Source of the DNA: Microgenomates group bacterium
GTDB lineage: Bacteria; Patescibacteriota; Microgenomatia; UBA10105; UBA927
Length of the DNA stretch: 64,000 bases
Direction: 5' to 3'
Assembly: GCA_049287205.1 (NCBI GenBank)
Contig: JBAQFJ010000001.1
Coordinates: 943,653-1,007,652 of the forward strand
Positions 9,660 to 63,971 of the stretch are shown piece after piece; the first letter of the stretch is position 1, and every line of letters begins with the position of its first letter. The position numbers and the translations under genes are program-made. Under the pieces are notes generated by a model. It did no database searches. It was not told the DNA's origin and worked only from the letters and a program-made list of their open reading frames with translations.

Positions 9660-9684
9660 GGAAGCTATTATCCCACGAACAGGC

Positions 9685-10722: not shown

Positions 10723-10988
10723 GAAGACCGTTTTTTCTTTGTTGCCCTTTTTGCCATTGGTTTTGCGCCAATTCCTGCAAAAGCTCTCACGACAAACAAG
10801 AGATAACAAATTTCCAGAATTCCCACTGTGTTTACTACCAATAGTCCGATAAACCACCATTTTTCATTTCGTTTCGCGGCATGCCATAAGGCAAATCCTT
10901 TCCATGCAAGACTCCAAATCATTGTGGGAATAAAACCGATACTCATCCATGGAAGCATGTTTATTGTTTCTCCGTTTAGCCAGTGCAT
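10719..10988 (-). CDS. Small Trp-rich membrane protein (2 TM), translationally coupled to epmA
   Basis: 89 aa with two hydrophobic helices. Its stop overlaps the epmA start (ATGA). Confidence 0.4.
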   Translation of the reverse strand: MHWLNGETINMLPWMSIGFIPTMIWSLAWKGFALWHAAKRNEKWWFIGLLVVNTVGILEICYLLFVVRAFAGIGAKPMAKRATKKKRSS

Positions 10989-16308: not shown

Positions 16309-16471
16309 AGAAGTTCGTGCATTGGAGCTATTGTATTATGACAAAAAGGAAACACGAAAACAACCTGATTATATAGCCTGCACATTATATTATTTTTGTA
16401 TCCCAACATGAGTGGCCCAGCAGTACTTGTTATACATTCGATGAAGACTCCAAGTGTGTAAAAATCAGCAC

Positions 16472-16921
16472 TTAGTTTGAAGCATCAAGCGCCTGGTTTA
16501 CAAAAAAGTCCGCCCGTTTATTGAGTTCCCGTCTGACAGCAGTGTAGATAACTTTTCCACAAAGAATCCGTTCAAGAGATTTTACTTGTGCGGCTAAAAT
16601 TTGCAGCTTTGTATCTTTAATTTTAAATGTTCCCATGAGTTGATTGACGACAAGCAACGAATCCAATATGAATGTGATTTGTTCCGCCTGTTCCCCTTTT
16701 GACTGAAGATATTGCAGCGCCTTGATGACTGCGGTATATTCAGCAACATTATTTGTTGTGTCCCCTATCTTTTCGCCAAATTCCGCGAGTAATGTTCCAT
16801 TTTTCTCTATTACAACGCCAATTGCAGCTGGTCCGGGATTGCCTCTTGCTCCCCCGTCTGTGTGAATGGTAAATGCATTATTCATGGCACAAGTATCGCA
16901 CTCCCGTTTCTCTTCTGTCAA
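16472..16921 (-). CDS. Ribonuclease H, type 1 (archaeal-like RNase HI family)
   Basis: DGGARGNPGPAAIGVVI and TNNVAEYTAVIKAL motifs. Confidence 0.7.
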   Translation of the reverse strand: MTEEKRECDTCAMNNAFTIHTDGGARGNPGPAAIGVVIEKNGTLLAEFGEKIGDTTNNVAEYTAVIKALQYLQSKGEQAEQITFILDSLLVVNQLMGTFKIKDTKLQILAAQVKSLERILCGKVIYTAVRRELNKRADFFVNQALDASN

Positions 16922-18153: not shown

Positions 18154-18170
18154 ACCTGCCTTCTATTGTA

Positions 18171-23453: not shown

Positions 23454-23714
23454 TTACGTTTCAATTTTTTCGTTGATTTTCATCAAAAGGTATGTCACAA
23501 GAAGTGCAAGTGCAGTAACAACCACTGCATAGACAAGTTGTGAGAATACGACACTTCCTTTTGGCATGTATGGTTTGATATACGTATCAATTGTCGCTTG
23601 TATTACCGTGTTCCATGCGAGTGCCGCAACGAGTCCAAAAGCGGCTGTTGATAGCGCTATCATTTGTTTGAGCATGGCACGCGCCATTGCCTTGGATTGT
23701 TTTTTGGTTTCCAT
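23454..23714 (-). CDS. Small membrane protein (2 TM; DUF5654-like)
   Basis: 86 aa with two hydrophobic helices. Confidence 0.4.
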   Translation of the reverse strand: METKKQSKAMARAMLKQMIALSTAAFGLVAALAWNTVIQATIDTYIKPYMPKGSVVFSQLVYAVVVTALALLVTYLLMKINEKIET

Positions 23715-23740
23715 ACCATTATTATATACCTATATCCTTT

Positions 23741-24784
23741 ATGTACACACCAACCTTCAATATCACCAATAAAATACTGAAAAACATCGGCATCATTGAA
23801 GCTGCAAAAGAAGTGATTGAAAATGCACCTCTTGTACCTGCATGGGAAGCAAAATTTCGGGAAGAGGCAATTGTGAGGACTGTTCATCACGGAACACACA
23901 TTGAAGGAAACGAACTTAATTTTACAGAAGCAGAAAAAGTACTTGCCGGAGCAAAAGTGGTAGGACGCGATCGGGATATTCAAGAAGTCTTAAATTATCG
24001 AAACGTCTTGAAATTTATTGAATCATATCAGGGGGATGCAATCGGTGATGAAACGGTAAAGCATGTGCATGCGCTTATTGCCGACAGGATATTGCCGGAA
24101 GCCGTTGTTGGTGAATACCGGAAATCTCAAGTGGTGGTAAAAAACAGTCAAACTGGAGAAATTACATTTCGTCCGCCGCCGGCAGTGGAAGTTCCTTTCC
24201 TTGTTTCTGACTTCTTGTTGTGGCTTAAAAATGCGGCACCTGATGAAATGCATGCGGCACTTAAGGCGGGAATCACCCATTATGAATTAGTACGTATCCA
24301 TCCATTTCTTGATGGAAACGGTAGAGCAGCGCGCGCGATTGCGACACTTGTTTTATTTCGGGATGGATATGATATTAAACGGTTTTTTTCACTTGAAGAA
24401 TATTATGATCGGGAACCGCTGAATTATTACAACGCGCTCCAGAGTGTTGCGACAGAGAATGGAAATTTAACGCACTGGCTTGAATATTTTACTGAAGGAC
24501 TTGCAATAGAACTTTCACGTATAAAGGAAAAAGTAAAAACACTGTCCACAGATCTTAAAATGAAAAAACAACTCGGCGGGCAGCAATTGACCCTCTCGGA
24601 ACGGCAAATAAAAATTGTTGAATTTATTCAGGAAAATGGATTTTTGCAGAATAAAGCATTTTTTGAATTATTCCCGATGATTAGTGAAGACACGGTGCTC
24701 CGGGAAATTAAAGATTTAATGAAGAAAGGCATACTTACAAAACAAGGATCAACAAAAGGTGTTCGCTATATCCTAAAAGGATAA
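23741..24784 (+). CDS. Fic family protein with a C-terminal winged-helix domain
   Basis: Fic motif HPFLDGNGRAARA. Start taken at MYTPTFNITNKIL. Confidence 0.8.
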   Translation: MYTPTFNITNKILKNIGIIEAAKEVIENAPLVPAWEAKFREEAIVRTVHHGTHIEGNELNFTEAEKVLAGAKVVGRDRDIQEVLNYRNVLKFIESYQGDAIGDETVKHVHALIADRILPEAVVGEYRKSQVVVKNSQTGEITFRPPPAVEVPFLVSDFLLWLKNAAPDEMHAALKAGITHYELVRIHPFLDGNGRAARAIATLVLFRDGYDIKRFFSLEEYYDREPLNYYNALQSVATENGNLTHWLEYFTEGLAIELSRIKEKVKTLSTDLKMKKQLGGQQLTLSERQIKIVEFIQENGFLQNKAFFELFPMISEDTVLREIKDLMKKGILTKQGSTKGVRYILKG

Positions 24785-24798
24785 CGCAATTTATACCA

Positions 24799-26520
24799 AT
24801 GACATTCCAGACGCTTGCTGTTTACGTTCAAAAACTTGAAAGCACTCCATCGCGTAACGCAATGACGCAGATTCTTGCTGACCTTTTTCTTCAGGCAAAA
24901 AATGACGAAATTGGAGAGCTATGCTATTTGCTGCAGGGGAGAGTAGCGCCTTTATATGAGGCAACAGAATTTGGTATTGCAGACAAGCTTATGATTCGAG
25001 CGGTTGCTATGGCATATGGAGTGGAAGAATCTCATGTGACAACACTTTTTAAAAAATATGGGGATTTGGGAATTGCAGCAGAGGAAATTGCGGGTGCTAA
25101 AAAACGATCTGTACAATACCAACTTCATGATGTGTTTTTTAAATTAAAAGCTGTTGCCATGATGGGTGGGGAGGGGTCACAGGAACAAAAAATTCAGGCA
25201 TTATCCGATTTATTCATTCATTCTGATTCACTTTCTGTCCGGTATCTTGTGAGGATTCCTTTGGATAAACTGCGTTTAGGGTTTTCGGATATGACGATGA
25301 TTGATGCGTTATCCTGGATGATTACTGGAACGAAAGCGCATAAAGATCAGATTGAGGCGGCTTATGAAGTCAGGCCGGATCTCGGGTATATCGCAACACA
25401 GCTTAAAATGCATGGTTTGCACGGGGTTTCCCATGTGAAACCTGTTGTGGGTGCACCGATTCTTGCAGCCCTCTGTCAGCGGCTTCCCAATGCCAGTGAA
25501 ATGATAAAGAAAATGGGAGAAGTAGATGTTGAACCGAAATATGACGGCGTGAGAACACAAATTCATTTCGACAGGAAAAACAAAAAGATTACTGTCTCGA
25601 GTTTTTCAAGAAATTTGGAAAATACAACAGCGATGTACCCGGAACTTGAGCATATAGCAGATCAAATTCATGCAGATGACGTTATTTTGGATAGTGAAGC
25701 GGTTGGGTATGATGAAAAAACACATCGGGTCATTCCATTTCAGGAAACTATGACGAGGAAACGAAAACATAATATTGCAGGGGCGACGCAGAGTGTACCT
25801 TTACGGTTTTTTGTTTTTGATATTTTAGAGAAGAATGGAGAGGATTTGATGGGTGTTTCTCTTTCAAAACGGCGGGATATTTTGGAACGCACCGTTATGA
25901 ACGGCCCAATTTTATCTGTTTCGCCGCATATTGTTACAGACAGCATTCAAACGCTCCGCGATTATCATACAGAGCAAATTACACTTGGTCTTGAAGGCGT
26001 CGTTGTGAAGAAATGGGAAGCGGTGTACGAACCGGGACGTCGCGGGTATACATGGGTGAAATTCAAAGAAGAAAATAAAGTGGGAAAACTTGCAGACACT
26101 GTCGATGCTGTAGTGATGGGCTATTACAAAGGGGAAGGGAAGCGGACGAACTTCGGTATCGGGGCATTTTTAGTGGGTGTTAAAAAGGGAGAATCATTTG
26201 TGACAATGACCAAAATCGGAACCGGAGTGACTGATGCACTATGGAAAGAAATGAAATTGTTGTTTGGCGCGTATGCATCAAAAGAGCAACCAAAAGCATA
26301 CCAGCAGGTTGATAAAATATTTATTCCAGATGTGTGGATAACACCTGAAATTGTTGTGGAAATTGCGGCAGATGATATTACAAAATCACCGTCACACGGT
26401 GCTAAATTTGCATTACGATTTCCAAGGCTTGTCAGAATTAGAACTGATAAAAACGCGAGTCAGGTAACTACAGTGAGCGAATTGGAAACCATGTATCATA
26501 ATCAGGAGTCAATACAATGA
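24799..26520 (+). CDS. ATP-dependent DNA ligase (archaeal/eukaryotic Lig type, 573 aa)
   Basis: Motif I EPKYDGVR, motif IV EGVVVKK and motif V WVKFK, plus an N-terminal DNA-binding domain. Confidence 0.8.
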   Translation: MTFQTLAVYVQKLESTPSRNAMTQILADLFLQAKNDEIGELCYLLQGRVAPLYEATEFGIADKLMIRAVAMAYGVEESHVTTLFKKYGDLGIAAEEIAGAKKRSVQYQLHDVFFKLKAVAMMGGEGSQEQKIQALSDLFIHSDSLSVRYLVRIPLDKLRLGFSDMTMIDALSWMITGTKAHKDQIEAAYEVRPDLGYIATQLKMHGLHGVSHVKPVVGAPILAALCQRLPNASEMIKKMGEVDVEPKYDGVRTQIHFDRKNKKITVSSFSRNLENTTAMYPELEHIADQIHADDVILDSEAVGYDEKTHRVIPFQETMTRKRKHNIAGATQSVPLRFFVFDILEKNGEDLMGVSLSKRRDILERTVMNGPILSVSPHIVTDSIQTLRDYHTEQITLGLEGVVVKKWEAVYEPGRRGYTWVKFKEENKVGKLADTVDAVVMGYYKGEGKRTNFGIGAFLVGVKKGESFVTMTKIGTGVTDALWKEMKLLFGAYASKEQPKAYQQVDKIFIPDVWITPEIVVEIAADDITKSPSHGAKFALRFPRLVRIRTDKNASQVTTVSELETMYHNQESIQ

Positions 26521-43310: not shown

Positions 43311-43383
43311 GGGCCCGTAGCTTAGCTGGTAGAGCGCATCATTTGCAATGATGAGGTCACCGGTTCGAATCCGGTCGGGTCCA
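43311..43383 (+). tRNA. tRNA-Ala (anticodon UGC)
   Basis: GGGCCCGUAGCUUAGCUGGUAGAGCGCAUCAUUUGCAAUGAUGAGGUCACCGGUUCGAAUCCGGUCGGGUCCA with a G3:U70 pair. Confidence 0.9.
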
Positions 43384-43935
43384 CAATAAAAAGTTCGTTT
43401 CGCGGGATAAGCGATTACTGAGTAATCTTTTATCTCGCGACAAGAGCGCGTCGTCGCGTAAACCGCGACAATAGCACTTTTACAATATCAATAGTATCTT
43501 CCTTTATAAATAGGACAAGGAAGATACATGGTTTTTTTGAATGAAATATGAGTAGTTACATCGTAAGGGATAATCTTAAATGTTGATTACCTGTTACGAT
43601 GACATTTCGTTGGGCGACAATTTTTTTATTAAATGAGTCGAGAAAAATAGAGCAAAGCGCGCTAATTAATTTTAGCTCCTTTGTTCTCTGCAACGCTTTT
43701 AAAGTTGATAATGGATGCCCTGGGTATTCATGCCGAGGAAGGACGTATATGACAGCGATATTCGTCGGGGAGGAGTCATAATCCTGTGATCCGGCGGTTT
43801 CCGAATGGGGAAACCCGTCTAGTGAAGAACTAGTCAATGTACGATGAAGATAACCGAAAGGTTGGGATAGTCGTATGTAGGATACCGGGCGAACTGAAAC
43901 ATCTCAGTAGCCTGAGGAATAGAAATCAAGTACGA

Positions 43936-43967
<32 letters not shown>

Positions 43968-45684
43968 AAGTCTAAACCACAGCGCAAGTTGTGGGGTTGT
44001 AGGGCTTTCGATCTGGAATGCAATTGGTGATAACAGAATACCGTGGAATAGGAAACCAAAGAACGTGAAAGTCGTGTATGTGAAATTACCAATTCTCCTA
44101 GAGAGTTCCTAAGTACCATGGACCACGAAGGGTCTGTGGGAATCTGGGTCAACCACGATCCAAGACTAAATACATGAATGCACCGATAGTGAACAAGTAC
44201 CATGAGGGAAAGGTGAAAAGCACCCCGGAAGGGGAATGAAATAGTACCTGAAATTATCAACTAACAAACAGACGAAGTCCTGCAATCGCAAGATTTGGAT
44301 AACGTCGTGCCTATTGAAGAATGAACCGGCGAGTTGCCCAGTACGGCTTTGCTTAATCAAGTAACCCTTGAGGAGGCGTAGTGAAAGCGAGGTCTAATTG
44401 ACCGATTATGTTGTACTGGACAGACCCGAAACCAGGTGAGCTAACCATGAGCAGGGTGAATGTTGACGAAAGCCAACAAGAGGCCCGAACTCGTCAGAGC
44501 TGCAAATCTGTGAGATGACTTGTGGTTAGGGGTAATATGCCTATCGAACCTGGAGATAGCTGGTTCTCCCCGAAATATATTTAGGTATAGCGGTTACTAA
44601 TTCCCGGAAGGGGTAGAGCACTGAATGATACGTGTTTCGCAAGGAATACGCATCAATCAAACTCCGAATACTTTCCGTGATACCGTAACTAGTCAGACAT
44701 GCACGGCTAAGCGCGTGTGTCAAGAGGGCAACAGCCCGGACTTACATCTAAGGTCTCTAAGTGTGTGCTCAGTGGTTAAGGAAGTTATGAATTTAAGACA
44801 CCCAGGAAGTTGGCTCAGAAGCAGCCACCTTTTAAAGAACGCGTAACAGCGCACTGGATGAAATTCGTAGCGCCGAAAATGAACGAGGCTCAAGCACGCC
44901 ACCGAAGATTAAGATGTGCCGTAAGGCACGTGGTAGGGGAGCGTTCTGTTCTGCGGTGAAGGTTAGGCTGTAAGGCTGACTGGAGCGGACAGAAGTGAGA
45001 ATGCCGGTATGAGTAGCGTTTGGAAGTGAGAATCTTCCATGCCGAATGCGCAAGGTTTCCGAAGCAACGTTCGTCGACTTCGGGTAAGTCGGATCTAAGC
45101 CGAGGCCATTATTTTGATGGCGTAGGTCGATGTATAAACGGTTTATATTCCGTTACTATAGTGTATTGATTAAGACACAAAGGAATGACAATGAGGGATT
45201 TGTTGATGTCTCGCACTCGCGGGATCTAAGCATTAAAGTAGTGAGGACTGGTAAATCCGTTCTCATGTTTAACTAAAGATGTGGGGGAGTTTGAGGAGCA
45301 ATCCGATGACAACATCAATCGTTTCTTATTCGAGAAAAGTTTCGTTGTGAAATACATTGTATCCGTACTAATAACCAACACTGGTGCGCTGGTAGAGTAT
45401 ACCAAGGCAAGCGGGCGACAGCAGTTTAAGGAACTCGGCAACAAAAACTAGGTGTAACTTATTGGAGATACCTTACCTAGAGCAATCTAGGTCACAGTAA
45501 ACGACACTATGCAACTGTTTAACTAAAACACAGGTCTCTGCGAAGCGGAAACGCAACGTATAGGGGCTGACACCTGCCCAGTGCCGGTAAGTTAAAAATG
45601 GTCGGTAAACAAAAACGTAAGTTTTTTTAGCTGGCTTTTTAAGCTCCGGTGAACGGCAGCAGTAACTATAACTGTTCTATGGTA

Positions 45685-46292
45685 AATTTTCGTTGCTATA
45701 GTGAGGTAGACAAACCTCTCTTTTATTCCCCGTGCAAAAGGAAGGCGGGATAAAAGAAAAATTGTGCTAAATGCTGGAAACTCTGAGTATCTTGTGCTAC
45801 TATGTGTTATATGACACATAGTGAAAAAGCATCAAGTGCAGACAATCAGCAGGAAAGATTGGATCCGTGGTGGATTGTAGGATTTGTTGATGGAGAAGGA
45901 TGTTTTTCCGTTAGTACGTTTAAAAATTCAACTTGTTCAAGTGGGTTTCAAACTCTTTATGAGTTTGTGGTCACACAAGGAGAAACGAGTAAACGAGCTA
46001 TGGAAGCAATCAAAACTTATTTTGGTTGCGGAGCGATTTATATAAATCGCAGACATGATAACCATCATCACGATCTTTTACGATATTGTGTACGAAAGCA
46101 GGAAGATTTGAAAACAAAAATCATCCCGTTTTTCAGAAAATATCCATTACAATCTGCAAAACAAGAACAATTTGAGACATTTTGTCAAAAATTGTTTGAT
46201 CCAAAATCCTCAACGACTATACGCACAACTCGGTAAAACGAGAAGATATAGTCTGATCTTCATGGCGACATGAAGTTAACAAATTTTTATGA
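45685..46292 (+). other. Group I intron in 23S domain IV, after GGTA and before GCGAAATTCC (E. coli ~1931 site), carrying a LAGLIDADG ORF
   Basis: The exon sequence is interrupted between ...AACTGTTCTATGGTA and GCGAAATTCCTTGTCGGG. Boundaries are accurate to within 1-2 nt. Confidence 0.7.
45802..46236 (+). CDS. LAGLIDADG homing endonuclease (single-motif, I-CreI-like), intron-encoded
   Basis: VGFVDGEGCF motif. Located inside the 23S intron. Confidence 0.8.
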   Translation: MCYMTHSEKASSADNQQERLDPWWIVGFVDGEGCFSVSTFKNSTCSSGFQTLYEFVVTQGETSKRAMEAIKTYFGCGAIYINRRHDNHHHDLLRYCVRKQEDLKTKIIPFFRKYPLQSAKQEQFETFCQKLFDPKSSTTIRTTR

Positions 46293-46912
46293 GCGAAATT
46301 CCTTGTCGGGCAAGTTCCGACCCGCACGAAAGGTAGAATGACATAGTGACTGTCTTAAACTGTTACCCGGCGAAATTGAAATGGCTGTGAAGATGCGGCC
46401 TACTCACACATGGACAAAAAGACCCCATGAAGCTTTACTGCAATTTGGCACTGAAGAGTTTATTTTAACTGTCGAGTATAGGTGGGAGCCTTCGGGCGAA
46501 CAATGGAATACCACTCTTTAAAATGAATGAATCTTACTTACTCCTACATAAAAATCTAGGAGCAGGACACTGTCTGATGGGCAGTTTAACTGGGGAGGTT
46601 GCCTCCAAAAGTGTAACGGAGGCGTGCAAAGGTTGGCTAATCCTGAATGGAAACCAGGACGTGTCGTGCAAACGCGATAAGCCAGCTTGACTGCGAGACG
46701 TACATGTCGAGCAGATGCGAAAGCAGGCGTTAGTGATCCTCGATACCCTCGTGGGAGGGTTCGGGCTTAACGGATAAAAGCTACTCTGGGGATAACAGGC
46801 TGATCGCTTCCGAGAGTCCATATCGACGAGGCGGTTTGGCACCTCGATGTCGGCTCATCCTATCCTGGGGCTGTAGAAGGTCCCAAGGGTCCGGCTGTTC
46901 GCCGGTTAAAAG

Positions 46913-46948
<36 letters not shown>

Positions 46949-47310
46949 AGACCTTAGTGGAATAGACGCCACTATAACGAGCTGTCCATCCTTTACCGTT
47001 CTAGAATCTTTGTATATCGAGAAATTTTAAAGGATCCCGCAAAACAATACTAATTATATTGAATGCGGGAATAAATCTGACTAATTGCTGGAAACACTCA
47101 GTATCTAATACTACTTTTAAAAAAAGTAACAATGTATTAGTGGAGTCAATCAGCAGGGAAGGCCCCGCCTTGGCGGGGAACCCTCAGAGACTATATGTCA
47201 GATCTGGCTTCGCCAGAAAGATATAGTCCGAACTGTATGGCGACATACAGACTGCAGCAGAAATGCGTGCAGAGTCGTTTTTACATCAAAAAACGATATT
47301 AACATTATTG
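46949..47310 (+). other. ORF-less group I intron in 23S domain V, inserted after GAGACAGT and before TCGGTC (E. coli 2593 / I-CreI-type site)
   Basis: The exon resumes with TCGGTCTCTATCC...CTAGTACGAGAGGACCG. The intron ends in G. It shares an AAGATATAGTC...ATGGCGACAT core-like block with intron 1. Confidence 0.7.
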
Positions 47311-47754
47311 TCGGTCTCTATCCTGTGTGAGCGTTCGATTCTTGAGGGGAGTTCTCTCTAGTACGAGAGGACCGAGAGGAACAGATCCCTGGTTTGCCTG
47401 TTGTCACCCTGAGAGGTGGCACCGCAGGGTAGCTAGATCTGGAAGGGATAAGTGCTGAAAGCATCTCAAGCACCAAGCCCACCCCAAGATGAAGAATCGT
47501 TGAAGATCCGTTGTAGATGACAACGTTGATAGGCGAGAAGTGTACGCACCGTGAGGTGTTCTAGCTTACTCGTACTAATTGATCGAATGTTGTGGAGAAC
47601 AAAGGAAGATTTGTTCTATTCCCAAACGATATGAACATCGCCTCTGGGATCAGCAACAAGATTATCCCTTATGTGTAATTACTCATTCAAAAAGTGTGAA
47701 TATTGATATTAACAATTAAATATTGGTAAAATAGCGAATCGAGAACCGCTCTAG

Positions 47755-47882
47755 AGTTCTCCAGTTTTTTGAGCGACGTGGCACCACCCGATCCCATCCC
47801 GAACTCGGAAGTGAAACGCGTTAGCGCTGACAATACTTGGTCCGCGAGGTCCTGGGAAGATAAGTCAAAGCTGGGGAACTGT
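47755..47882 (+). rRNA. rrf: 5S ribosomal RNA (boundaries approximate)
   Basis: CCCATCCCGAACTCGGAAGTGAAACGCGTTAGCGCTGA core, and a helix I GTTCTCCAG/CTGGGGAAC extended into a long processing stem. Confidence 0.7.
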
Positions 47883-55508: not shown

Positions 55509-56780
55509 CTATAACGATTCTTTTTTTAGGAGAGTGTGTGCAGCAAGTTTTCCAAATTCCACTGCATAGTTCGTTCCGCGATCCCATGGATAGATAGAAT
55601 CAAGATTTGCCAGATATATGTGTTTGTATGGTGTGACAATTACAGGTGCACACTTCGAATAATTGCAGGTATGCACGGGCTGCGCGTTAGGAACGGTAAA
55701 TAGAAACATGTTGGTGATATCTTTTTTTGAAAAATGAGGAGCAATTTTTTTGAGGTATGGGAAAAAGAGTGCTAGCAGTTCCTCTTTCGTTTTTGTAATG
55801 AATGCATGACCATCCGGCAGATAATTGCCGACATAACAAATATGGTTTCCTCCATAGTGGGATGACGCAATCATATTTGTGTGATCAACAACTGCCAAAA
55901 ATGGAAATGATCGGTCGTTAATGTTGAGCCAATACGTCTTGTTGAGTATTGGTTTTTTTGTTTCAAGAATGAGTGTTTGCGCCCAAAGGTGTGGAATTGC
56001 AAGTAATTGTTTTTTGTAGTGTTCGTCAAACCCGCCGATTGCCGCGGCAATTGAGGAGGGGACAGTATAGAGGATTGCATCAAACTGACGCTCATTGATG
56101 AGAAATCCGGTTGTCGTTTTTTTGATTGCTGTTATTGTGGTATTTGTCAGTATAGTGCCGCTATTTTTTTTGACAGCGTCTGCTAGCACTTCAACAAACC
56201 GAGAAAATCCGCCTCGAAAATACCCGAGACGGGGGGTTCTTTTGTAGAGTCTCGCCCAAAGCCAAGATGCTGCCACTTTGTCTGCGAATGGCCCAAATTT
56301 TGCGTCCAAGAGCGGTTCCCAGATCCGCTGCCATGCAATTTTACCGTTGATAATCTGAAATAATTTTTTTGCTGTGATGTGTTCGAGTGGCTTCCAAAAT
56401 GGATTGCATTTCATGAGGGCCGCAGTCATCCCCGTTCTTACGCGATCAATAAACGGCAATCCCGGGAATTTTAAAATAGTGAGTGGTGTGTCAAATGGAT
56501 GTTGCTCGCCATTAAGATATATAGAAGTGGTTGGGGAGAGGATAAGCATATCGTTTTTTAGTCCAAGTTCACGGGCAAGACTGATGAGTGCGCGGTCGTT
56601 GGTAAAAAAATGGTGATAGGTTTTTTCCAATTTCCAGCTCCATGAGGCGCTAGAAAAACCGTTTGCGAGTCCTCCGAGTGATTCATCCTTTTCAAACACA
56701 GTAACCGCGGCACCGCGTTTAGTGAGTTCATATGCGGCACTTAGCCCTGTGATCCCGCCGCCGATGATTGCAACATTCAT
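55509..56780 (-). CDS. FAD-dependent oxidoreductase of the UDP-galactopyranose mutase (Glf) / amine-oxidase-like superfamily
   Basis: N-terminal MNVAIIGGGITGLSAAYEL...VFEKDESLGGL dinucleotide fold, and TYHHFFTND resembling the Glf GAHIFHTND motif. Length 423 aa. Confidence 0.5.
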   Translation of the reverse strand: MNVAIIGGGITGLSAAYELTKRGAAVTVFEKDESLGGLANGFSSASWSWKLEKTYHHFFTNDRALISLARELGLKNDMLILSPTTSIYLNGEQHPFDTPLTILKFPGLPFIDRVRTGMTAALMKCNPFWKPLEHITAKKLFQIINGKIAWQRIWEPLLDAKFGPFADKVAASWLWARLYKRTPRLGYFRGGFSRFVEVLADAVKKNSGTILTNTTITAIKKTTTGFLINERQFDAILYTVPSSIAAAIGGFDEHYKKQLLAIPHLWAQTLILETKKPILNKTYWLNINDRSFPFLAVVDHTNMIASSHYGGNHICYVGNYLPDGHAFITKTKEELLALFFPYLKKIAPHFSKKDITNMFLFTVPNAQPVHTCNYSKCAPVIVTPYKHIYLANLDSIYPWDRGTNYAVEFGKLAAHTLLKKESL

Positions 56781-56874
56781 ACTGGAAGAAATTGTAGCAC
56801 AAACAGAGCGTGATACTGTTTGTTTTATTGCTAGACTGAGACATTCACGATATACTTATGTTCGGAATTCTTGT

Positions 56875-57768
56875 ATGTTTCGCTTATTTCAAAAAACGCT
56901 TTTGTATCAGCTTCTTTTTCTTCTTCGTCCGTGGCATTGGGTGAAAAATATCGCAGTCTACGTGCCTATTGTGTTTGCCGGACTTTTGTTTACCTCAGCT
57001 GCTTTTTGGCAAACAACCATTGCGTTTCTTTCCTTATGTTTTCTTTCGTCATCACATTACATTATCAATGACATTGTGGATGCGCCAAAAGACAAGCTAG
57101 ACAGCAACCGGAAACATCGTCCTATTGCATCCTCCGCAATTTCTGTGGAACTTGCATGGTTTGTATGGTGTGTCTGTGTCGGTATCGGATTTTTTATCGC
57201 CTCGCAACTGGGGAGTTCATTTTTTATTGTCGCTCTTACCTATTCGTTTGTTCATTATCTTCTATTATTTATTTTCCGTCATATGCCCATTCTTGATATT
57301 ATGGCGCTTGCAACAGGATATATACTCCGAATATTTGCGGGTGAAGTCGCATCGGATATTCATATATCCATTTGGCTTGCACTTTCGGCATTTTCTCTTG
57401 CCCTGCTGTTTGCTGTTTCTAAACGGAGACATGAATGGAATATGAAACAGGCAACTGTTGTGAAAGAACGGTATTCTGAACGATTGCTTGATACGTACAT
57501 AGCTGTTTTTGCAACCTCATCATTTCTTTCCTATACGTATTTTACGTTTCTTTCGACGTTTTCGTTGGAGGGGGTGACGGGAGCCGGTAGAAAATGGCTG
57601 ATGATAACAACCCCATTTGTGTTATATGGCATACTTCGGTTTCTTCAGCAGCTGTATGAAGAAAAGCAAAAAACATTTCAACGATTACTGGTGACTGATG
57701 CGCCACTTCTGATTACCGCATTTGGGTGGGGAATATCAGTACTCGTCATCATCTACGGATTGCGCTAA
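56875..57768 (+). CDS. UbiA-family prenyltransferase resembling decaprenyl-phosphate phosphoribosyltransferase (DPPR synthase, Rv3806c-like)
   Basis: NDIVDAPKDKLDSNRKHRPIASS (NDxxDxxxD...RPIAS) motif and about 8 TM helices. Start at MFRLFQ; the ORF-track GTG start at 56722 overlaps the upstream gene. Confidence 0.6.
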   Translation: MFRLFQKTLLYQLLFLLRPWHWVKNIAVYVPIVFAGLLFTSAAFWQTTIAFLSLCFLSSSHYIINDIVDAPKDKLDSNRKHRPIASSAISVELAWFVWCVCVGIGFFIASQLGSSFFIVALTYSFVHYLLLFIFRHMPILDIMALATGYILRIFAGEVASDIHISIWLALSAFSLALLFAVSKRRHEWNMKQATVVKERYSERLLDTYIAVFATSSFLSYTYFTFLSTFSLEGVTGAGRKWLMITTPFVLYGILRFLQQLYEEKQKTFQRLLVTDAPLLITAFGWGISVLVIIYGLR

Positions 57769-57771
57769 AAT

Positions 57772-58365
57772 GTGATGCATATGACTCCACGACACCCGCA
57801 CTCCACAAAACCCATTCGTATAGGATTGGATTTTGACGGGGTTGTTGCAGCAAATCCGCTTCGTATTGTTCGCGGTCCGATTACATTCATTAAACGTCAT
57901 ATTTTCAAAAAGAAAAAAACGGAATTTTATATTCCGACATCGCCCCTCATGAAATTTGCGTTTTGGTTGCCGCACCAATGGAGTGTTTTTCCGGGGTACG
58001 GTGTAGGGATACTGAAACAATTGGTTCATGAAGGGAATGTGGAAGCATGCATTGTCAGCGGCAGATACGGGTATCTGGATGCACAGATTCCCATTTGGTT
58101 GAAGCGGCGTGGGCTGGATAAGACGTTTACTGCCGTGTATGCAAATGAGAAGAATGAGCAGCCGCATATATTTAAAGAACGGATGCTCAAGAAACTGCAG
58201 TTGGATTATTTTATTGAGGATAATTTGGATATTGTGCTGTATCTGGCACCGCGTGTGAAAACAAAAATTTTATGGATTTACAATAGTTTTGACTTCGCCT
58301 TTCCGTATGATGCAAAATATGCATCTGTTTTTCAGGCACTCAAAACACTTATGGCGCATCGGTAA
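57772..58365 (+). CDS. HAD-superfamily phosphatase
   Basis: IGLDFDGVV (DxDG) motif I. Located directly after the UbiA-like gene. Confidence 0.55.
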   Translation: MMHMTPRHPHSTKPIRIGLDFDGVVAANPLRIVRGPITFIKRHIFKKKKTEFYIPTSPLMKFAFWLPHQWSVFPGYGVGILKQLVHEGNVEACIVSGRYGYLDAQIPIWLKRRGLDKTFTAVYANEKNEQPHIFKERMLKKLQLDYFIEDNLDIVLYLAPRVKTKILWIYNSFDFAFPYDAKYASVFQALKTLMAHR

Positions 58366-58371
58366 ATACCA

Positions 58372-59904
58372 GTGCTATATTCTTTGATTGAAAAAACAAT
58401 GAGTTTTTTTAAAAAAAATCAGGATCGCATAGTGTTATGTGCCATATGCATTGCTTTTTTTATTGTCGGACTCTATCGATTAGATACACTTCCCGGAGAA
58501 TGGTTTGGTGATATCTCCATAGTAAATAATTATGTAAGCGAGATTTTAGCGGGAAACCATCCATTCATTTTTGTTACGAGTGCGGGCCCTGTATATTTTT
58601 ATTGTATTGCTCCGATCATTTATCTTGTTGGTGCCTCATTTTTGACGTATAAATTGATTTCCTTAAGCGTTGGAGTTGTTGGCATCGTTGTTATCTATCT
58701 TTTTGCCCGAGCGCTGTTTTCTTCCCGTATTGCCCTCATCACCTCCTTTCTTACCGCCTGTTCATTCTGGTATCTCGTGTGGGCAAGACTTGGTAACTAC
58801 AACATCTGTGTTCCTATTCTTACAGCGTGTATGCTGTATTGTTTTTTGAAATATGTGCATGGTCATCATTTTCGTTGGCTTGCAGGAAGCATTATTGCTT
58901 CTGGATTCGGACTGTTTTTATATGCAGGCACATTTGTATTGCCCGTTGTGTTGTGTGCGTTGTATTTGTACGACCTTGTTTGGCAACGGAAAAAAATGGA
59001 GTGGAGGCAGATATGGCGGATGGCATGTTGGTATCTCCCTATTTTTACCTTGTTTATGTTGTTGCTTTTTTTGAGTGCCAGGCAAGAAGCAGATGGGTAT
59101 TTAGGAACGAAACTCATCGATACATTTTCCTTACCGCTTGGTGATTTTTTGTTGCAGTTGGGGCGAAATGCCTTTCGTACCCTGACCATGCTACATCTTG
59201 AGGGAGACATTGTGTTTCGGTGGAATATTCCTGCCAAACCTCTGATCGATACGGTAAGCGGGATAGTTTTTATTTTTGGTGTGCTGTTACTGTTTATTCA
59301 AAAAAAATCCTGTCTGCCATATATTGTTATTCCTGCGTGTCTTTTACTTATTCCTTCCATACTTCCCGGTCATCCGGCAATTGAAGTCCCAAGTAGTCCT
59401 AGGACACTTGCTATTCTTCCATTTGTATTTGTCAGTATTGCGTACGGCATCGATTGTATGTATGTTTTTTTCAAAGAAAAGATCGGGCCTTTTGGCGGCA
59501 AGATATTGTTGCTCGCTCTATGTGTAGTGATTTTATATTTGAATATGTATGCGTATTTTGTTCAGTATCCAACTCACTTGCCAAACAGGAATGTACCGTA
59601 TAGCAAACTCATTGCCGCGTTTATCGACACAGTCTCTACAGAAACACCGGTGTATATAACTGCCTTAGAGTGGGGAGAGTGGGGACAACCGGAATATGAC
59701 GGAATTTATTATGCACTGCAGCATAGAGATAGAATACTGAGTACCGATGTGCCGACATGCGATCTCGTCGGCACAGCATTTGTTGTTATCGCCTCACCGT
59801 ATCAACAGGAAGAAGTATCTGTATTGCAGTCGTGTATACCGACTGCAACCATACGGGAGCACAGAAAAAATGGTCAGCTAGTCTTTTTGTCGCTTACGAA
59901 TTAG
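58372..59904 (+). CDS. GT-C fold membrane glycosyltransferase (ArnT/PMT_2-like, GT39/GT83)
   Basis: About 11 TM helices, a first extracytoplasmic loop with PGEWFGD, and a C-terminal soluble domain. Confidence 0.55.
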   Translation: MLYSLIEKTMSFFKKNQDRIVLCAICIAFFIVGLYRLDTLPGEWFGDISIVNNYVSEILAGNHPFIFVTSAGPVYFYCIAPIIYLVGASFLTYKLISLSVGVVGIVVIYLFARALFSSRIALITSFLTACSFWYLVWARLGNYNICVPILTACMLYCFLKYVHGHHFRWLAGSIIASGFGLFLYAGTFVLPVVLCALYLYDLVWQRKKMEWRQIWRMACWYLPIFTLFMLLLFLSARQEADGYLGTKLIDTFSLPLGDFLLQLGRNAFRTLTMLHLEGDIVFRWNIPAKPLIDTVSGIVFIFGVLLLFIQKKSCLPYIVIPACLLLIPSILPGHPAIEVPSSPRTLAILPFVFVSIAYGIDCMYVFFKEKIGPFGGKILLLALCVVILYLNMYAYFVQYPTHLPNRNVPYSKLIAAFIDTVSTETPVYITALEWGEWGQPEYDGIYYALQHRDRILSTDVPTCDLVGTAFVVIASPYQQEEVSVLQSCIPTATIREHRKNGQLVFLSLTN

Positions 59905-59977
59905 CGTACCTTGTTTTCAGATGAAGCAGTTTTTGTCTGTGCTATACTGTGTGAATTGTTTTTCGCATTGATTTTTT

Positions 59978-61021
59978 ATGAAAGATACGCGTCTATTTTT
60001 GGTAACCGGCGGATCAGGATTCTTGGGCATTAATTGTATAAGGTATCTTCTTCATCGGGGTTGCCGTGTGCGTTCGCTTGATATAGCGCCATTTACGTAT
60101 CCTGAAAAAACCCGCGTTGTTTCTCTTGTTGGAGACATTCGTGACAAAAAAACGGTAGAACAAGCGATGCGCGGTGTGGATGTGGTTGTTCATTGCGCCG
60201 CCGCACTTCCTTTGTACACAAAAGAGGATATTTATTCAACGGAAGTGACTGGGACGGAAATCGTTTTGGCTGCAGCAAAAAAACTGCATATTTCGTGCGT
60301 TATATATATTTCTTCAACCGCTGTTTATGGTATTCCCGACCATCATCCGATTGTAGAAACTGACCGCATGATCGGTGTAGGTCCGTATGGTGAAGCCAAA
60401 ATACAAGCAGAAGCGCTATGTCGGCGTGCAAGAGCACAAGGCTTGTGTGTACCAATCATCAGACCAAAAACATTTGTCGGCCCCGAACGGTTGGGGATTT
60501 TCGGGATGCTGTATGACTGGGCATATACAGGGCACGGGTTTCCGATGATTGGGTCGGGGAACCACCGGTATCAACTGTTGGATGTGGAAGACTTATGCCA
60601 GTTTATTTATCTTGTAAGTTGTAAACCAAGGGACGTGGTAAATACTGAATTTAATGTCGGCGCTTTGAAATTTGGAACAATGCGTGAAGATTTTCAGTCT
60701 GTATTAACCCTTGCGGGACATGGAAAAAAAATCATTGGTTTTGCCGAACAGCCTGTTATCTTTGGACTGAAGGTGTTGGAAGCACTGCACTTGTCGCCAG
60801 TCTATGAATGGATTTATGAAACTGCAGGAAAAGATTCGTTTGTTTCGATTGTAAAAGCTCAAAAAATTGGTTACAAGCCTCAGTATTCCAACAGTGATGC
60901 GTTGAAACGGAATTATATGTGGTATGTGAAGAATTTGCCGAGTTTTGCTCGTACGACGGGTATATCACACCGTGTGCCGTGGGGACAGGGAATTTTGCAG
61001 TTTGCCAAGTTATTCTTCTAA
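59978..61021 (+). CDS. NAD-dependent epimerase/dehydratase (extended SDR)
   Basis: LVTGGSGFLGINCIRYLL Rossmann motif and the YGEAK catalytic YxxxK. Confidence 0.75.
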   Translation: MKDTRLFLVTGGSGFLGINCIRYLLHRGCRVRSLDIAPFTYPEKTRVVSLVGDIRDKKTVEQAMRGVDVVVHCAAALPLYTKEDIYSTEVTGTEIVLAAAKKLHISCVIYISSTAVYGIPDHHPIVETDRMIGVGPYGEAKIQAEALCRRARAQGLCVPIIRPKTFVGPERLGIFGMLYDWAYTGHGFPMIGSGNHRYQLLDVEDLCQFIYLVSCKPRDVVNTEFNVGALKFGTMREDFQSVLTLAGHGKKIIGFAEQPVIFGLKVLEALHLSPVYEWIYETAGKDSFVSIVKAQKIGYKPQYSNSDALKRNYMWYVKNLPSFARTTGISHRVPWGQGILQFAKLFF

Positions 61022-62671
61022 TGTAATCGGAGTAAACACACCGGTTTTTTTGAATATCATAATTTTCGGATGGTCATAGACGGTAAACGATTCATCGGCC
61101 ACGCTGTCATTGATTTGCATGTTGGTAAACGGTAATGTCGGATAATTTTCAAACGTTGCAACTTTTGTAAACCCGAGGGATCCGGAAAATAATTTATGAT
61201 AATACATCGCTGTTGTTTTGTAGCATTTGTCTTTTGGCAATCTGCTGCAGTTTGTCAATTTCATAAGTGGGGTATAGAGTCTGTTGCTTGCGATGATAAT
61301 GTAGTCTGTTTCACTTAACACCTGATTGACAGTGTCCCATTTTTCGTTTGTATCCGTTTCATAGAGCGCTAGTTCACGTACAGCATAGAGGGAAGCAAAT
61401 CCGATCGGCAACGCGTCGTCCCAATGTTCAAGGGCGATGACCGCGCCTTTTGCAATGTTTGTTTTTATCCATGCTGTTGCTGTGACCCGTGTGTTCGGCA
61501 CGGTGTATATTGTCATGAAGGTCATTGTCCACAGAAGTATAATTCCGGTACAAATACCGTAGATAAGCACACTTTTGTTGCGGGATAGAGTATGAGTACA
61601 TTTTTGTATCAATAATGCTGCAAAGATTGTCAGTAGTGGATATATAGGAAGCATATATCGCATAAATCCGATGGCAAACCGTCCGACAGTTGCTGTATAG
61701 ATCCAAAAAAAGGAAAGGAGAAGAATAGCGGGGAAGTGTTTTTCTTTTATTGTGTGCAGTGTTGCATAGATGATTCCTACGATCGATAGCGTGCCAAGCA
61801 GTATTCCTTGTCCCCAAAGCAGGATATTTTTTAGTTCATATATATAGGGAATTTTTCCGACATATTGGAGGGTATAGGGGAATGTGAACGCGTTTTTTGT
61901 CATGGTTTGTTGTGCGATTATTTGCTGCTTGAATGAGACAAAATCAAAAAATGCGAATGGTTCTGAAACAAAAAATGTATACAGTGTCGCTCCACCGATG
62001 CATGCTGCATGGGTAAGTGTCTGTTTCCAACTGTTTTTCCATTGGAGAGCGAGGGTTATGCCGATTGGAATACATAATATTGTTGCACTTATTTTTGTTG
62101 CAAGCGCAAGTCCGCATGCAACACCAATATACAGCGCATTGGAGATGGTTTGGTGTTGGTGGTATCGAAGGATGAGGAGGAGGGTGAGCATGGAAAAAAA
62201 TGTGAGGAGTGTATCAACCGCGTAAAAATGGCTGAGTTGTATGGGAAGAACAGAGATGGCGTACCAAAGTGAGCCAAACCACACCGTGTATTTATTTTTA
62301 GTTAATCTGCGAAGAATATAATATATGCAACAGACAGACCCGATATCAAATACTCCCGACAGTATTCTTCCAAGAATGTAGATTTTGTCGTAGCTTGCAA
62401 ACCGTATGTCGAACATTCCGCCGATTGCTCCTGTAAGTTTCAACAGATAGAACGGGAAACTTCCATAGGCAAAAAAGTGCGGATTCATGTCTTGGTGAAC
62501 GTTTAACTGTTCGACGGTCATGAGAATCATCCGTTCATCCGGATGAAGATGGTTCCCCTGATCCCAATCAAGACCTGTGAATCTGAAGACGGCGGCAATG
62601 CCAAGAATTGCAATCAATAGTATGAATGATTTAATTCGTGGTTTCATGGTAATTGCATGACTGAGCGACAT
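61010..62671 (-). CDS. GT-C fold glycosyltransferase family 39-like (PMT_2 / ArnT-like)
   Basis: LHPDERMI (DE motif) in the first loop and about 11 TM helices. Confidence 0.6.
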   Translation of the reverse strand: MSLSHAITMKPRIKSFILLIAILGIAAVFRFTGLDWDQGNHLHPDERMILMTVEQLNVHQDMNPHFFAYGSFPFYLLKLTGAIGGMFDIRFASYDKIYILGRILSGVFDIGSVCCIYYILRRLTKNKYTVWFGSLWYAISVLPIQLSHFYAVDTLLTFFSMLTLLLILRYHQHQTISNALYIGVACGLALATKISATILCIPIGITLALQWKNSWKQTLTHAACIGGATLYTFFVSEPFAFFDFVSFKQQIIAQQTMTKNAFTFPYTLQYVGKIPYIYELKNILLWGQGILLGTLSIVGIIYATLHTIKEKHFPAILLLSFFWIYTATVGRFAIGFMRYMLPIYPLLTIFAALLIQKCTHTLSRNKSVLIYGICTGIILLWTMTFMTIYTVPNTRVTATAWIKTNIAKGAVIALEHWDDALPIGFASLYAVRELALYETDTNEKWDTVNQVLSETDYIIIASNRLYTPLMKLTNCSRLPKDKCYKTTAMYYHKLFSGSLGFTKVATFENYPTLPFTNMQINDSVADESFTVYDHPKIMIFKKTGVFTPITLEE

Positions 62672-63971
62672 CGTATACGTTCATTCCCGTTGTTGTATTG
62701 GTGTATAGATTTACAAATTCATTTTCAAACAAGACATTGTTTGGTTGAAGAAATTGTTCCGGGGTACGGGAAAGTTCTATATACCCGATATGGTACTTTT
62801 GCAATAAATAACATGCTTTTTCTTTGTTGGTTGCTTCATAAATGGATTTTTGCTGCATTTCCCGTTTTGTCTGATTATATCCGTATGACCATGTAAAGTA
62901 GGTATATCCCGCAAATATTTTTCTTCCGGCAAGAGACGCCGGGTGATAGAGCCATGTGCTGTTTAAAATAACGGCATCAGGCGGAGTGTTGGTGCGGAAA
63001 AATTCTACATCCCGGTTATTAGGCGCATCCTGCATCGATCCTTTTGTTTCATTGAAAATAGGGAACAGATCAATGATGCCGGAAAGAGTTAAAATAAATG
63101 CCAATAAGCCAATAACCCAATAACTTAATATACGGATGATTTTAGATGAAGATTTTTTGAGCCAGTCAAAGATTTTGACCAATCCATGTGCGGTAAGTAA
63201 GTTGCCGACGATAATAAAAAAATTAAAGAATTTGTGATTATTGATCATATCAGGAGAAAACCGCCACAGATTGGGTGCAATAAACAGTAGCAGTAAGGGA
63301 ACGATGAACAGAATTTTAACTTTTTTTGGTGCGACAATGAATCCGAAGGGAATCATAACAAACGAAAGTCCGAGATTTTGCCACCAAAATACCACAATGG
63401 AACGCAGTGTGAGCGGATTGTGCACAAGATAGCCTGGATCAAAGGTGATAGTACCAGACAAGCCAATAAGCTTTGTATACACGAAAATACTTGGAATACT
63501 GATGAGTGCGGCACAAAGGAGGGGGATACGAGATTTTTTTTGTATGATGCAGATCCACAGAAGCCAAATTCCTGCAATAAGGGCAGCTGCTTGGTTTAAA
63601 AAAAGCAGGGTAATCATGGAGAGTGCAATGCTGCAGGAGAGCAGGAATCTATGGACTTTTGACTGCATGGTATTTGTCTTGAGTGTAAGCAGTATTGTTA
63701 TGAGTACCAGTGCATACGACAATCCAAGATGTCGTTGATTTGTATAGATATTCATTGTCCAGAATGCGCTTACAAGTCCTCCATCCCACGGGCCGAATGC
63801 CGGAAACGCGGTATTTGTGACAATATCCTGCAGTGTATGGGATGAAAGCGGATGTTTTTCAAAAAATCGTACAAAGGACAGTGACCCATTAAAACAAAAA
63901 AGGAGTACGGCAATGGTTGCAGTTGCATAGCGAGAGAACAGTTTTTTTGCCATGAGTGCAATGGTAAGCAT
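62631..63971 (-). CDS. Polytopic membrane protein, putative GT-C-like glycosyltransferase (may extend beyond the window)
   Basis: About 10 TM helices plus a C-terminal soluble domain. It overlaps the downstream GT-C gene by 41 nt. Confidence 0.4.
   Translation of the reverse strand: MLTIALMAKKLFSRYATATIAVLLFCFNGSLSFVRFFEKHPLSSHTLQDIVTNTAFPAFGPWDGGLVSAFWTMNIYTNQRHLGLSYALVLITILLTLKTNTMQSKVHRFLLSCSIALSMITLLFLNQAAALIAGIWLLWICIIQKKSRIPLLCAALISIPSIFVYTKLIGLSGTITFDPGYLVHNPLTLRSIVVFWWQNLGLSFVMIPFGFIVAPKKVKILFIVPLLLLFIAPNLWRFSPDMINNHKFFNFFIIVGNLLTAHGLVKIFDWLKKSSSKIIRILSYWVIGLLAFILTLSGIIDLFPIFNETKGSMQDAPNNRDVEFFRTNTPPDAVILNSTWLYHPASLAGRKIFAGYTYFTWSYGYNQTKREMQQKSIYEATNKEKACYLLQKYHIGYIELSRTPEQFLQPNNVLFENEFVNLYTNTTTGMNVYDVAQSCNYHETTN

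Follow-up and report, generated by a model that had tools for sequence, protein, structure and literature searches.

We analysed a gene cluster at the end of a 64,000-nucleotide stretch of genomic DNA (hereafter the window; contig JBAQFJ010000001.1) from a Microgenomates group bacterium, a member of the candidate phyla radiation (CPR). The cluster runs from position 55509 to the window end. It encodes a flavoprotein, a homologue of UbiA-type phosphoribosyltransferases, a predicted phosphatase of the HAD superfamily, an extended short-chain dehydrogenase/reductase (SDR) and several membrane proteins, among them two glycosyltransferases of the GT-C type. An earlier reading of the sequence alone, which we call the original prediction, described it as an arabinogalactan-precursor-like cluster of seven genes. 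All seven open reading frames (ORFs) are present at the positions given there, and our analysis points to a pentofuranose carried on polyprenyl phosphate as the probable product, without the galactofuranose half of that reading. The features are listed below in window coordinates.

55509-56780, minus strand: FAD flavoprotein of the NF005560/PRK07233 family (Pfam Amino_oxidase, NCBIfam); 423 aa, soluble
56781-56874: divergent intergenic region of 94 bp, separating the flavoprotein gene from the UbiA operon
56875-57768, plus strand: homologue of UbiA polyprenyl-phosphate 5-phosphoribosyltransferases (PPPRS/DPPRS-like); 297 aa, polytopic
57772-58365, plus strand: predicted stand-alone HAD-superfamily phosphatase (fold and motifs); 194-197 aa
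58372-59904, plus strand: GT-C #1, membrane protein of the PMT_2 type (Pfam PMT_2); 490-510 aa
59978-61021, plus strand: extended SDR of the NAD-dependent epimerase/dehydratase family (Pfam Epimerase); 347 aa
61010-62671, minus strand: GT-C #2, membrane protein of the PMT/PMT_2 type with an HLHPDER motif (Pfam PMT_2 and PMT); 553 aa
62631 to beyond 64000, minus strand: predicted distant paralogue of the DUF2298/Chlor_Arch_YYY proteins (hhalign), polytopic, N-terminus outside the window

The true start of the UbiA gene is at 56875. The last gene runs on in an open frame past the edge of the window, and the ORF originally given for it (62631-63971) is partial. The complete gene is found on an identical 12.8-kb Logan contig that extends past the window (L001:2573-4240, 555 aa), where the next gene, in divergent orientation, encodes a 760-aa DUF2298/Chlor_Arch_YYY protein (L001:268-2550). 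Analysis of hydrophobic segments gives none in the flavoprotein, the HAD protein and the SDR, and indicates that the UbiA protein, GT-C #1, GT-C #2, the 555-aa protein and the DUF2298 protein are polytopic. The divergent arrangement of the flavoprotein and UbiA genes is kept in several related loci (L003-L005, L019, L041, L042, L046 and L058). The 94-bp region between them contains a promoter-like site on the plus strand (56828-56856), which is a match to a consensus pattern only and as such weak evidence.

The UbiA homologue and its adjacent predicted phosphatase

Sequence comparison places the UbiA protein among the relatives of decaprenyl/polyprenyl-phosphate phosphoribosyltransferases (DPPRS), as the original prediction had proposed from its NDxxDxxxD...RPIAS signature. 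It contains the motifs INDIVDAPKD...HRPIAS. At the top of the NCBIfam ranking stand four models, three of them for decaprenyl-phosphate phosphoribosyltransferase (173, 138 and 84 bits) and one for the HAD-UbiA fusion PRK08238 (127 bits); the best model for an ordinary prenyltransferase reaches 39 bits, more than 100 bits below the best DPPRS model. The best match in the PDB is Rv3806c from M. tuberculosis (8j8j, E = 1.7e-17). Homologues from Levybacteria, Gottesmanbacteria and “Patescibacteria group” genomes, at 38-42% identity, already carry the name decaprenyl-phosphate phosphoribosyltransferase at NCBI. This qualifies the earlier statement that such a pathway is undescribed in CPR bacteria: our literature search for DPPRS in Patescibacteria yielded nothing relevant, but the annotation exists.

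We compared the functional residues of Rv3806c, with their roles taken from PMC10994848, in an alignment of 120 CPR homologues and four proteobacterial fusion proteins. Twelve of the 14 catalytic or substrate-binding residues are retained in the window protein, counting two Lys-to-Arg replacements (K87 and K143). R22, K28, Y70, N73, D74, D77, D81, R90, Y157 and R160 are identical. The protein thus has both the Asp-rich motif N-D-x-x-D-x-x-x-D and the cluster of Arg and Lys residues that binds pyrophosphate (R22, K87, R90, K143). In Rv3806c, K28, Y70 and Y157 contact the ribose 5′-phosphate of phosphoribosyl pyrophosphate (PRPP), and the UbiA superfamily is reported not to conserve the phosphoribose-binding sites of Rv3806c (PMC10994848). 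The window protein keeps these three residues, as do at least 117 of the 120 CPR homologues. Their retention, given that they are not conserved across the superfamily, is the strongest computational argument that the enzyme uses PRPP.

Another conserved operon (L053, L055 and L057, at about 5600-10950 in each) carries a second DPPRS-like UbiA subtype of CPR genomes, 312-314 aa long. The order there is a GT2-like gene, a gene for a protein of roughly 456-483 aa, a gene for a small protein of 117-130 aa, a Glycos_transf_4 (MraY/WecA-like) gene and the UbiA gene. The protein of roughly 456-483 aa matches PMT_2 in L053 and L055, with no match recorded in L057. This operon has neither HAD nor flavoprotein genes, and BacA lies nearby in L057. 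With this second subtype in a separate operon, DPPRS-like enzymes look widespread in the Microgenomates/CPR lineage.

The gene that follows UbiA encodes a protein without any match to Pfam, to NCBIfam or to PDB sequences, the last searched with both the single sequence and a profile. An AlphaFold2 model built on 45 homologues has a pLDDT of 89.7, and the top 50 Foldseek matches to it are all HAD-superfamily phosphatases. The four HAD motifs, DFDGV, S/T, K and EDN, are invariant across the 45 homologues; in the numbering of homologue P0241 the invariant residues include D17/D19 in DxDGV, K132 and E146-D147-N148. The Ser or Thr of motif II is aligned in 13 of 13 homologues from related loci. Fold and motifs together bear out the earlier call of a DxDG phosphatase of the HAD type, not of the PAP2 type. 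The family has 129 detectable members among 5.8 billion sequences (P0241-P0360 among them), none with a Pfam domain, and each source name given is a CPR name. A tblastn search of plasmids with the HAD protein gave no match, and the NCBIfam model NF006088 covers the UbiA part only, leaving the HAD protein unmatched. We describe here a lineage-specific family of stand-alone HAD proteins in the position of the phosphatase.

The HAD gene lies directly downstream of UbiA in all 10 loci that hold both; in L047 UbiA is present and HAD was not detected. Gene position makes it plausible that the protein is a polyprenyl-phospho-5-phosphoribose 5′-phosphatase. In Citrobacter, ORF15 joins a PPPRS of the UbiA type to a HAD-family phosphatase, PRP, and has been shown biochemically to make undecaprenyl-phosphate-ribofuranose from PRPP (Kelly et al., PNAS 2024, PMC11127046). 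On the basis of position and modelled fold, we propose that the Microgenomates HAD protein may be a functional analogue of PRP from outside the PRP family.

The flavoprotein, its partners and gene order

The original prediction likened the flavoprotein to a UDP-galactopyranose mutase (UGM, Glf). In that reading, the mutase would make UDP-galactofuranose and a second arm of UbiA, phosphatase and epimerase would make decaprenyl-phosphate-arabinose. The UbiA-HAD arm is real, and the YHHFFTND motif of the flavoprotein does resemble the UGM motif, HIFHTND. The rest of the evidence goes the other way. Pfam Amino_oxidase covers the full length of the protein, and the GLF domain (PF03275) is unmatched. 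The NCBIfam model NF005560 (PRK07233, “hypothetical protein”) reaches 408 bits, well over its cut-off of 252, followed by HpnE with 71 bits. In fold, the protein is nearest to phytoene desaturase (PDS), the top structural match, and to protoporphyrinogen oxidase (PPOX), both of which outrank UGM. A search with the family profile finds PF1083, PPOX, L-amino acid oxidase, monoamine oxidase and PDS at 1e-13 to 1e-8, whereas E. coli UGM (1i8t) reaches just 2e-4, and only over residues 5-84 in the N-terminal FAD-binding part.

The motif itself also fails to single out Glf. HHFFTND is restricted to the CPR clade, the proteobacterial and Embleya members read YHFVCKFD, and only E52, Y55, H56 and D62 of this region are conserved across phyla. 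At the same position plant PDS has LHIFFG, so the motif is not specific for Glf. We conclude that the flavoprotein is an enzyme of the phytoene-desaturase/PPOX type without a Glf signature, which is the outcome that the original prediction had named as its own refutation. With Glf, the galactan half of that reading falls, and with it the arabinogalactan-precursor label; a GlfT-like galactofuranosyltransferase and DprE1/DprE2 are missing from the cluster too. The reading as a whole is highly improbable, and synthesis of galactofuranose or arabinogalactan is not indicated. The remark that the flavoenzyme is not DprE1-like was correct, and no DprE1 is present.

An exhaustive search for the flavoprotein family gave 823 clusters at 50% identity (E ≤ 1e-30). 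On four proteobacterial plasmids, from Agrobacterium, Burkholderia, Rhodobacteraceae and Rhizobium (L048, L049, L051 and L052), the gene is part of the same six-gene operon, located at roughly 4500-10700 in each. The order is HAD-UbiA fusion, DprE1-like gene, DprE2-like SDR, extended SDR, PRK07233 flavoprotein and GtrA, with scores of 510 bits for NF005560, 532 bits for PRK08238 and 373 bits for the DprE1-like protein. This operon appears to be uncharacterised. The hypothetical membrane proteins that flank it match neither Pfam nor the CPR profiles for GT-C and DUF2298. The closest non-CPR homologue of the flavoprotein, with 32% identity, is found in Embleya sp. NBC_00888 (L050:7741-11365), where its gene overlaps the end of a GT2 gene, with a DegT aminotransferase gene before and GMC oxidoreductase genes after; there is no UbiA gene within 10 kb of it. 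Natural fusions link the family to GtrA (three GtrA::flavoprotein examples and one GtrA::flavoprotein::GT2::GT2 protein of 1447 aa), to LPG_synthase_TM, which is MprF flippase-like (LPG_synthase_TM::flavoprotein), and to a methyltransferase (flavoprotein::methyltransferase); the database entries of the fusion proteins are P0451, P0486, P0495, P0490, P0493 and P0405. An in-frame fusion of a full-length flavoprotein to a GT-C #2-type protein, 1071 aa long and with LHPDER retained, is encoded at L036:5896-9111 on the plus strand. It comes from one metagenome-assembled genome only and could be genuine, or an assembly error or lost stop codon. Synteny in CPR genomes, the proteobacterial operons with DprE1/E2 and GtrA, and the natural fusions are three independent lines that tie this unstudied family to polyprenyl-phosphate sugar pathways, and we infer that its place is with the donors of polyprenyl-phosphate sugars and the flippases that serve them.

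The SDR matches Pfam Epimerase (E = 1.4e-33) and has the motifs TGGSGFLG (TGxxGxxG) and YGEAK (YxxxK) of an extended SDR, in line with its first description as an NAD epimerase. Its best NCBIfam models, HpnA at the top, then OleD and LegB, are all below cut-off. Close orthologues occur in L005 (75%) and L047 (44%) only. Identity to the SDR of the proteobacterial operon is 27%, a generic likeness from which orthology is not clear.

The original prediction counted three GT-C transferases, of which the two PMT_2-type proteins are confirmed and the third is not. GT-C #1 matches Pfam PMT_2 (E = 3.4e-12) and has many hydrophobic segments. GT-C #2 matches PMT_2 (6e-12) and PMT (4e-11), and its profile finds yeast PMT1 (6p25, 1.4e-5) and ArnT (5ezm, 2e-4). 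The HLHPDER motif already noticed in its first loop is well supported, with D45, E46 and R47 invariant in 17 homologues. Both PMT_2 proteins also have faint matches to TIGR03663, 18-20 bits against a cut-off of 126.

The 555-aa protein has no match in Pfam or the PDB, only weak hints of DUF6798. Profile comparison with hhalign gives 22% against a PMT-type GT-C alignment and 6% in a second comparison of the 555-aa/DUF2298 pair with a PMT_2-type alignment; the DUF2298 protein likewise has no PDB match. Against the DUF2298 alignment it gives 96.1% (E = 3e-9, 490 columns), with WSDFG paired with MDYGF and the YYY region aligned as well. These comparisons identify the 555-aa protein as a probable distant paralogue of DUF2298, without detectable PMT-like similarity. 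The DUF2298 protein beyond the window matches TIGR03662 with 469 bits, and our search of the literature on the function of DUF2298 or Chlor_Arch_YYY returned nothing relevant.

A scan of a genome collection with the flavoprotein alignment returned close Microgenomates relatives only. We counted the genes within 10 kb of the flavoprotein gene in 46 related loci from fairly close relatives. The tightest linkage is to the DUF2298 gene (39/46 loci) and the gene for the 555-aa protein (35/46), followed by GT-C #2 (23/46), HAD (13/46) and UbiA (10-11/46). An SDR is near as a close homologue in 3 of the 46 loci and as a distant one in 3 more, and a clear orthologue of GT-C #1 in about 3-4. A frame of flavoprotein, UbiA-HAD with a cassette, two membrane proteins (GT-C and DUF2298-like) and DUF2298 is shared by the window, L005 and L058. 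In L058 a GT4 and a methyltransferase gene occupy the place of GT-C #1 and the SDR, which makes the latter two a variable cassette. The neighbouring S1, RadA, PIN/TRAM and Rho genes are also syntenic in related genomes. The synteny comparison suggested with the original prediction shows a grouping beyond chance: the gene set recurs in relatives, and UbiA, flavoprotein and an extended SDR occur together in Proteobacteria.

A proposed pentofuranose pathway and its alternatives

We consider the locus to be probably, with a rough probability of 0.6, the Microgenomates version of an extracytoplasmic polyprenyl-phosphate pentofuranose glycosylation pathway. By homology, the UbiA-type enzyme would transfer 5-phosphoribose from PRPP onto polyprenyl phosphate at the cytoplasmic face of the membrane, and the adjacent HAD phosphatase would remove the 5′-phosphate to give polyprenyl-phosphate-ribofuranose. 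After translocation, the PMT_2-type GT-C transferases would attach the pentofuranose to a surface acceptor. Reduced CPR genomes are expected to make PRPP. The roles of the remaining proteins are less firm. The SDR may epimerise ribose to another pentofuranose, for example xylo- or arabinofuranose, for which Citrobacter ORF13 is a precedent; alternatively it may be an auxiliary reductase acting on the lipid-linked pentofuranose. The PRK07233 flavoprotein may serve as a conserved accessory in the cytoplasm, with the sugar or the polyprenyl chain of the lipid-linked intermediate as its target just before flipping. The two DUF2298-type proteins may be further membrane components, as transferases, polymerases or translocators. 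The original prediction had likewise expected a lipid-linked donor used by GT-C enzymes. Its pentofuranose arm is supported by the Rv3806c residues, the HAD fold and the PMT_2 proteins; its galactofuranose arm is lost.

Several observations weigh against this reading. The UbiA protein is below every NCBIfam equivalog cut-off (NF008977, 173 against 234 bits; NF008978, 138 against 207 bits). Two of the Rv3806c residues are replaced in it, Q135 by His and Y138 by Leu; position 135 is Gln in 84 of the 120 CPR homologues. Between the HAD protein and the PRP domains in the proteobacterial HAD-UbiA fusions, no sequence similarity is detectable, and an hmmsearch profile of 13 homologues matched four of these fusions at motif I only. 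No flippase of the GtrA, SMR, MATE or Wzx type was found among the cluster proteins. In most of the 46 loci the flavoprotein lies beside DUF2298-type genes with no UbiA-HAD pair within 10 kb, so its link to the ribose pathway is not obligatory in gene order, and since the CPR loci are fairly close relatives, their synteny is in part inherited and not selected. The interpretation as a whole rests on homology and gene context.

Could the flavoprotein and the SDR together be a non-orthologous replacement for DprE1/DprE2, with FAD-dependent oxidation to a keto sugar and an inverting reduction by the SDR to give polyprenyl-phosphate-arabinofuranose or -xylofuranose? The cluster offers one FAD enzyme and one NAD(P) enzyme and has neither DprE1 (VAO-type, FAD_binding_4) nor DprE2 (a classical SDR of roughly 250 aa), both of which are readily detected in the proteobacterial operons. 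In all proteobacterial operons examined the extended SDR adjoins the PRK07233 flavoprotein, and the nearest SDR models, HpnA, OleD and 3beta-HSD, use lipid-type substrates. In those same operons, however, DprE1- and DprE2-like genes stand alongside the flavoprotein/SDR pair, so the flavoprotein is not simply a DprE1/E2 replacement, and we rank it as a simple substitute for DprE1 below the pentofuranose pathway with an accessory flavoprotein. Most flavoprotein-bearing CPR loci lack the SDR, with GT4 and methyltransferase genes instead in L058, and the 27% identity leaves the CPR and proteobacterial SDRs without clear orthology. Alcohol oxidation is also atypical of the PDS/PPOX/amine-oxidase fold. 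We regard the replacement as unlikely.

Still less likely is an isoprenoid-lipid pathway as in carotenoid or hopanoid clusters, in which UbiA would prenylate a non-sugar acceptor and a PDS/HpnE-like flavoprotein and an HpnA-like SDR would modify the isoprenoid. The HpnE score, the phytoene desaturase fold and the HpnA match of the SDR fit such a pathway, as does a UbiA protein that stays under the DPPRS cut-offs. Yet this protein retains the residues that bind the 5′-phosphate and pyrophosphate of PRPP, and simple prenylation has no need for a tightly coupled phosphatase. The neighbouring genes encode GT-C proteins instead of terpene synthases or cyclases, and the fusions and operons of the flavoprotein point to GtrA, GT2 and DprE1/E2 rather than to genes for carotenoids or hopanoids.

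The sugar module differs between the systems that carry the flavoprotein, PRPP-derived pentose in some and GT2-made in others, and polyprenyl phosphate is the shared element; with the PDS-like fold, this makes the lipid a plausible target. There is a precedent in enzymes of the RetSat type, which saturate an allylic isoprene unit. The flavoprotein could reduce or desaturate the polyprenyl chain in the manner of phytoene desaturase or RetSat, giving a dolichol-like alpha-saturated carrier for the GT-C/DUF2298 enzymes, or alternatively a new sugar-modifying oxidase. It is possible, though we would not call it probable, that NF005560/PRK07233 is a widespread and so far unrecognised component of lipid-linked sugar pathways that acts cytoplasmically on polyprenyl-phosphate sugars just before flipping. 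In Microgenomates it would then form, with the DUF2298-type proteins, the core of an envelope-glycan machinery into which UbiA and HAD are plugged as a donor module. The family is a testable candidate for a missing step in the maturation of lipid-linked donors.

A second group of surface-glycan genes lies on the minus strand at 13792-19430. It comprises a DUF4012 protein (838 aa), a Wzx/MatE-like flippase at 16918-18153 and a Wzy_C/O-antigen-ligase-like protein at 18171-19430. The flippase gene is the only one of the Wzx/MatE-like type in the window, about 37 kb from the cluster. The group could supply an acceptor polymer or a flippase to the pentofuranose system.

Elsewhere in the window, the 23S rRNA gene (43688-47597) is 3910 nt long against a model of 2925 nt, with about 1 kb of insertions; a group I intron at 46993-47250 within it is above the Rfam gathering score. 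A 5S rRNA gene is at 47760-47876 and a tRNA gene at 43311-43383, and the window has no adjacent 16S rRNA gene. Three tRNA genes (3463-4627) are closely followed downstream by a gene for a tyrosine recombinase of the phage integrase family (5096-5956); this region (3463-5956) may be the edge of an integrated element. A Fic/DOC-family protein gene (23687-24784) adjoins a gene for an ATP-dependent DNA ligase (24799-26520), and neither is related to the cluster.

Comparison with known systems

The mycobacterial decaprenyl-phospho-arabinose pathway has the same first committed step, the same overall logic and the same catalytic residues in Rv3806c. It differs in its PAP2 phosphatase Rv3807c, in DprE1/DprE2, in the GtrA-like Rv3789 and in its Emb/Aft GT-C enzymes; the Microgenomates cluster has a HAD phosphatase and PMT_2-like GT-C proteins and none of the rest. 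It also has neither glf nor glfT, hence no galactan arm, and the finding does not reveal an arabinogalactan-like wall outside Corynebacterineae. The view in the original prediction that the chemistry is essentially restricted to Corynebacterineae is outdated, as both the rhizobial noeCHOP system (PMC5080398) and the three-component systems (PMC11127046) use it. D-arabinosylation of Nod factors by rhizobial noeC(N)HOP involves a homologue of UbiA/DPPRS together with a candidate phosphatase and a transferase of its own (PMC5080398). The Microgenomates cluster differs from this system, which has the DprE1/E2 homologues NoeH/NoeO, a lipo-chitooligosaccharide acceptor and no reported PRK07233 flavoprotein. 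The proteobacterial PRK08238 operon likewise has an NF005560 flavoprotein near a DPPRS-type UbiA, a HAD phosphatase and an extended SDR. There, HAD and UbiA are fused and DprE1/E2 and GtrA are present; in the Microgenomates cluster HAD is separate and those genes are absent.

The haloarchaeal Agl23/TIGR03663 and TIGR03662 proteins offer a further parallel. The DUF2298 protein just outside the window matches TIGR03662; membership of the PMT_2 proteins in TIGR03663 is not established. Agl23 is a putative hexose-phosphate-dolichol flippase with flipping activity in vitro (PMC11182771), a precedent worth remembering for a cluster without a recognisable flippase.

The system of Citrobacter youngae O1/O2 consists of the PPPRS and PRP of ORF15, the SDR epimerase ORF13, the MATE flippase ORF14 and the GT-C enzyme ORF12 of family GT136, and the single SDR ORF13 turns the side chain into xylofuranose (PMC11127046). 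DprE1/E2 homologues go with arabinofuranose-containing glycans, and a flippase and a GT-C enzyme finish the pathway (PMC11127046). Candidate three-component systems are reported among Gram-negative as well as Gram-positive bacteria and in one phage (Caudoviricetes), in which PRP is a separate gene, as are “elaborate” systems that have several epimerases or several GT-C genes (PMC11127046). The Microgenomates cluster resembles these systems in its Rv3806c-related UbiA, its HAD phosphatase, an optional single extended SDR and GT-C transferases, and its HAD is a separate gene as in the Caudoviricetes example. The differences lie in the phosphatase, a CPR family without detectable similarity to the PRP domain; in the flippase, MATE in Citrobacter, with no MATE, SMR or GtrA flippase in the window cluster; and in the GT-C enzymes, GT136 against PMT_2, which are set apart here by family label. 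The core of the window cluster also includes two DUF2298-type proteins and a PRK07233 flavoprotein, and the text and supplement of PMC11127046 contain no discussion of the flavoprotein.

The host differs as well. The cluster stands beside core genes (S1, RadA and Rho) and is kept across Gottesman- and Woesebacteria-type genomes, and it predicts a PRPP-derived pentofuranose surface glycan in these bacteria. To our knowledge, CPR hosts have no outer membrane and no O antigen, unlike Citrobacter, and we know of essentially no characterisation of CPR cell envelopes. The features that are new relative to the known systems are the CPR host, the absence of a recognisable flippase, the stand-alone HAD family, and the combination of PMT_2 and DUF2298 proteins with a PRK07233 flavoprotein in the core of the locus.

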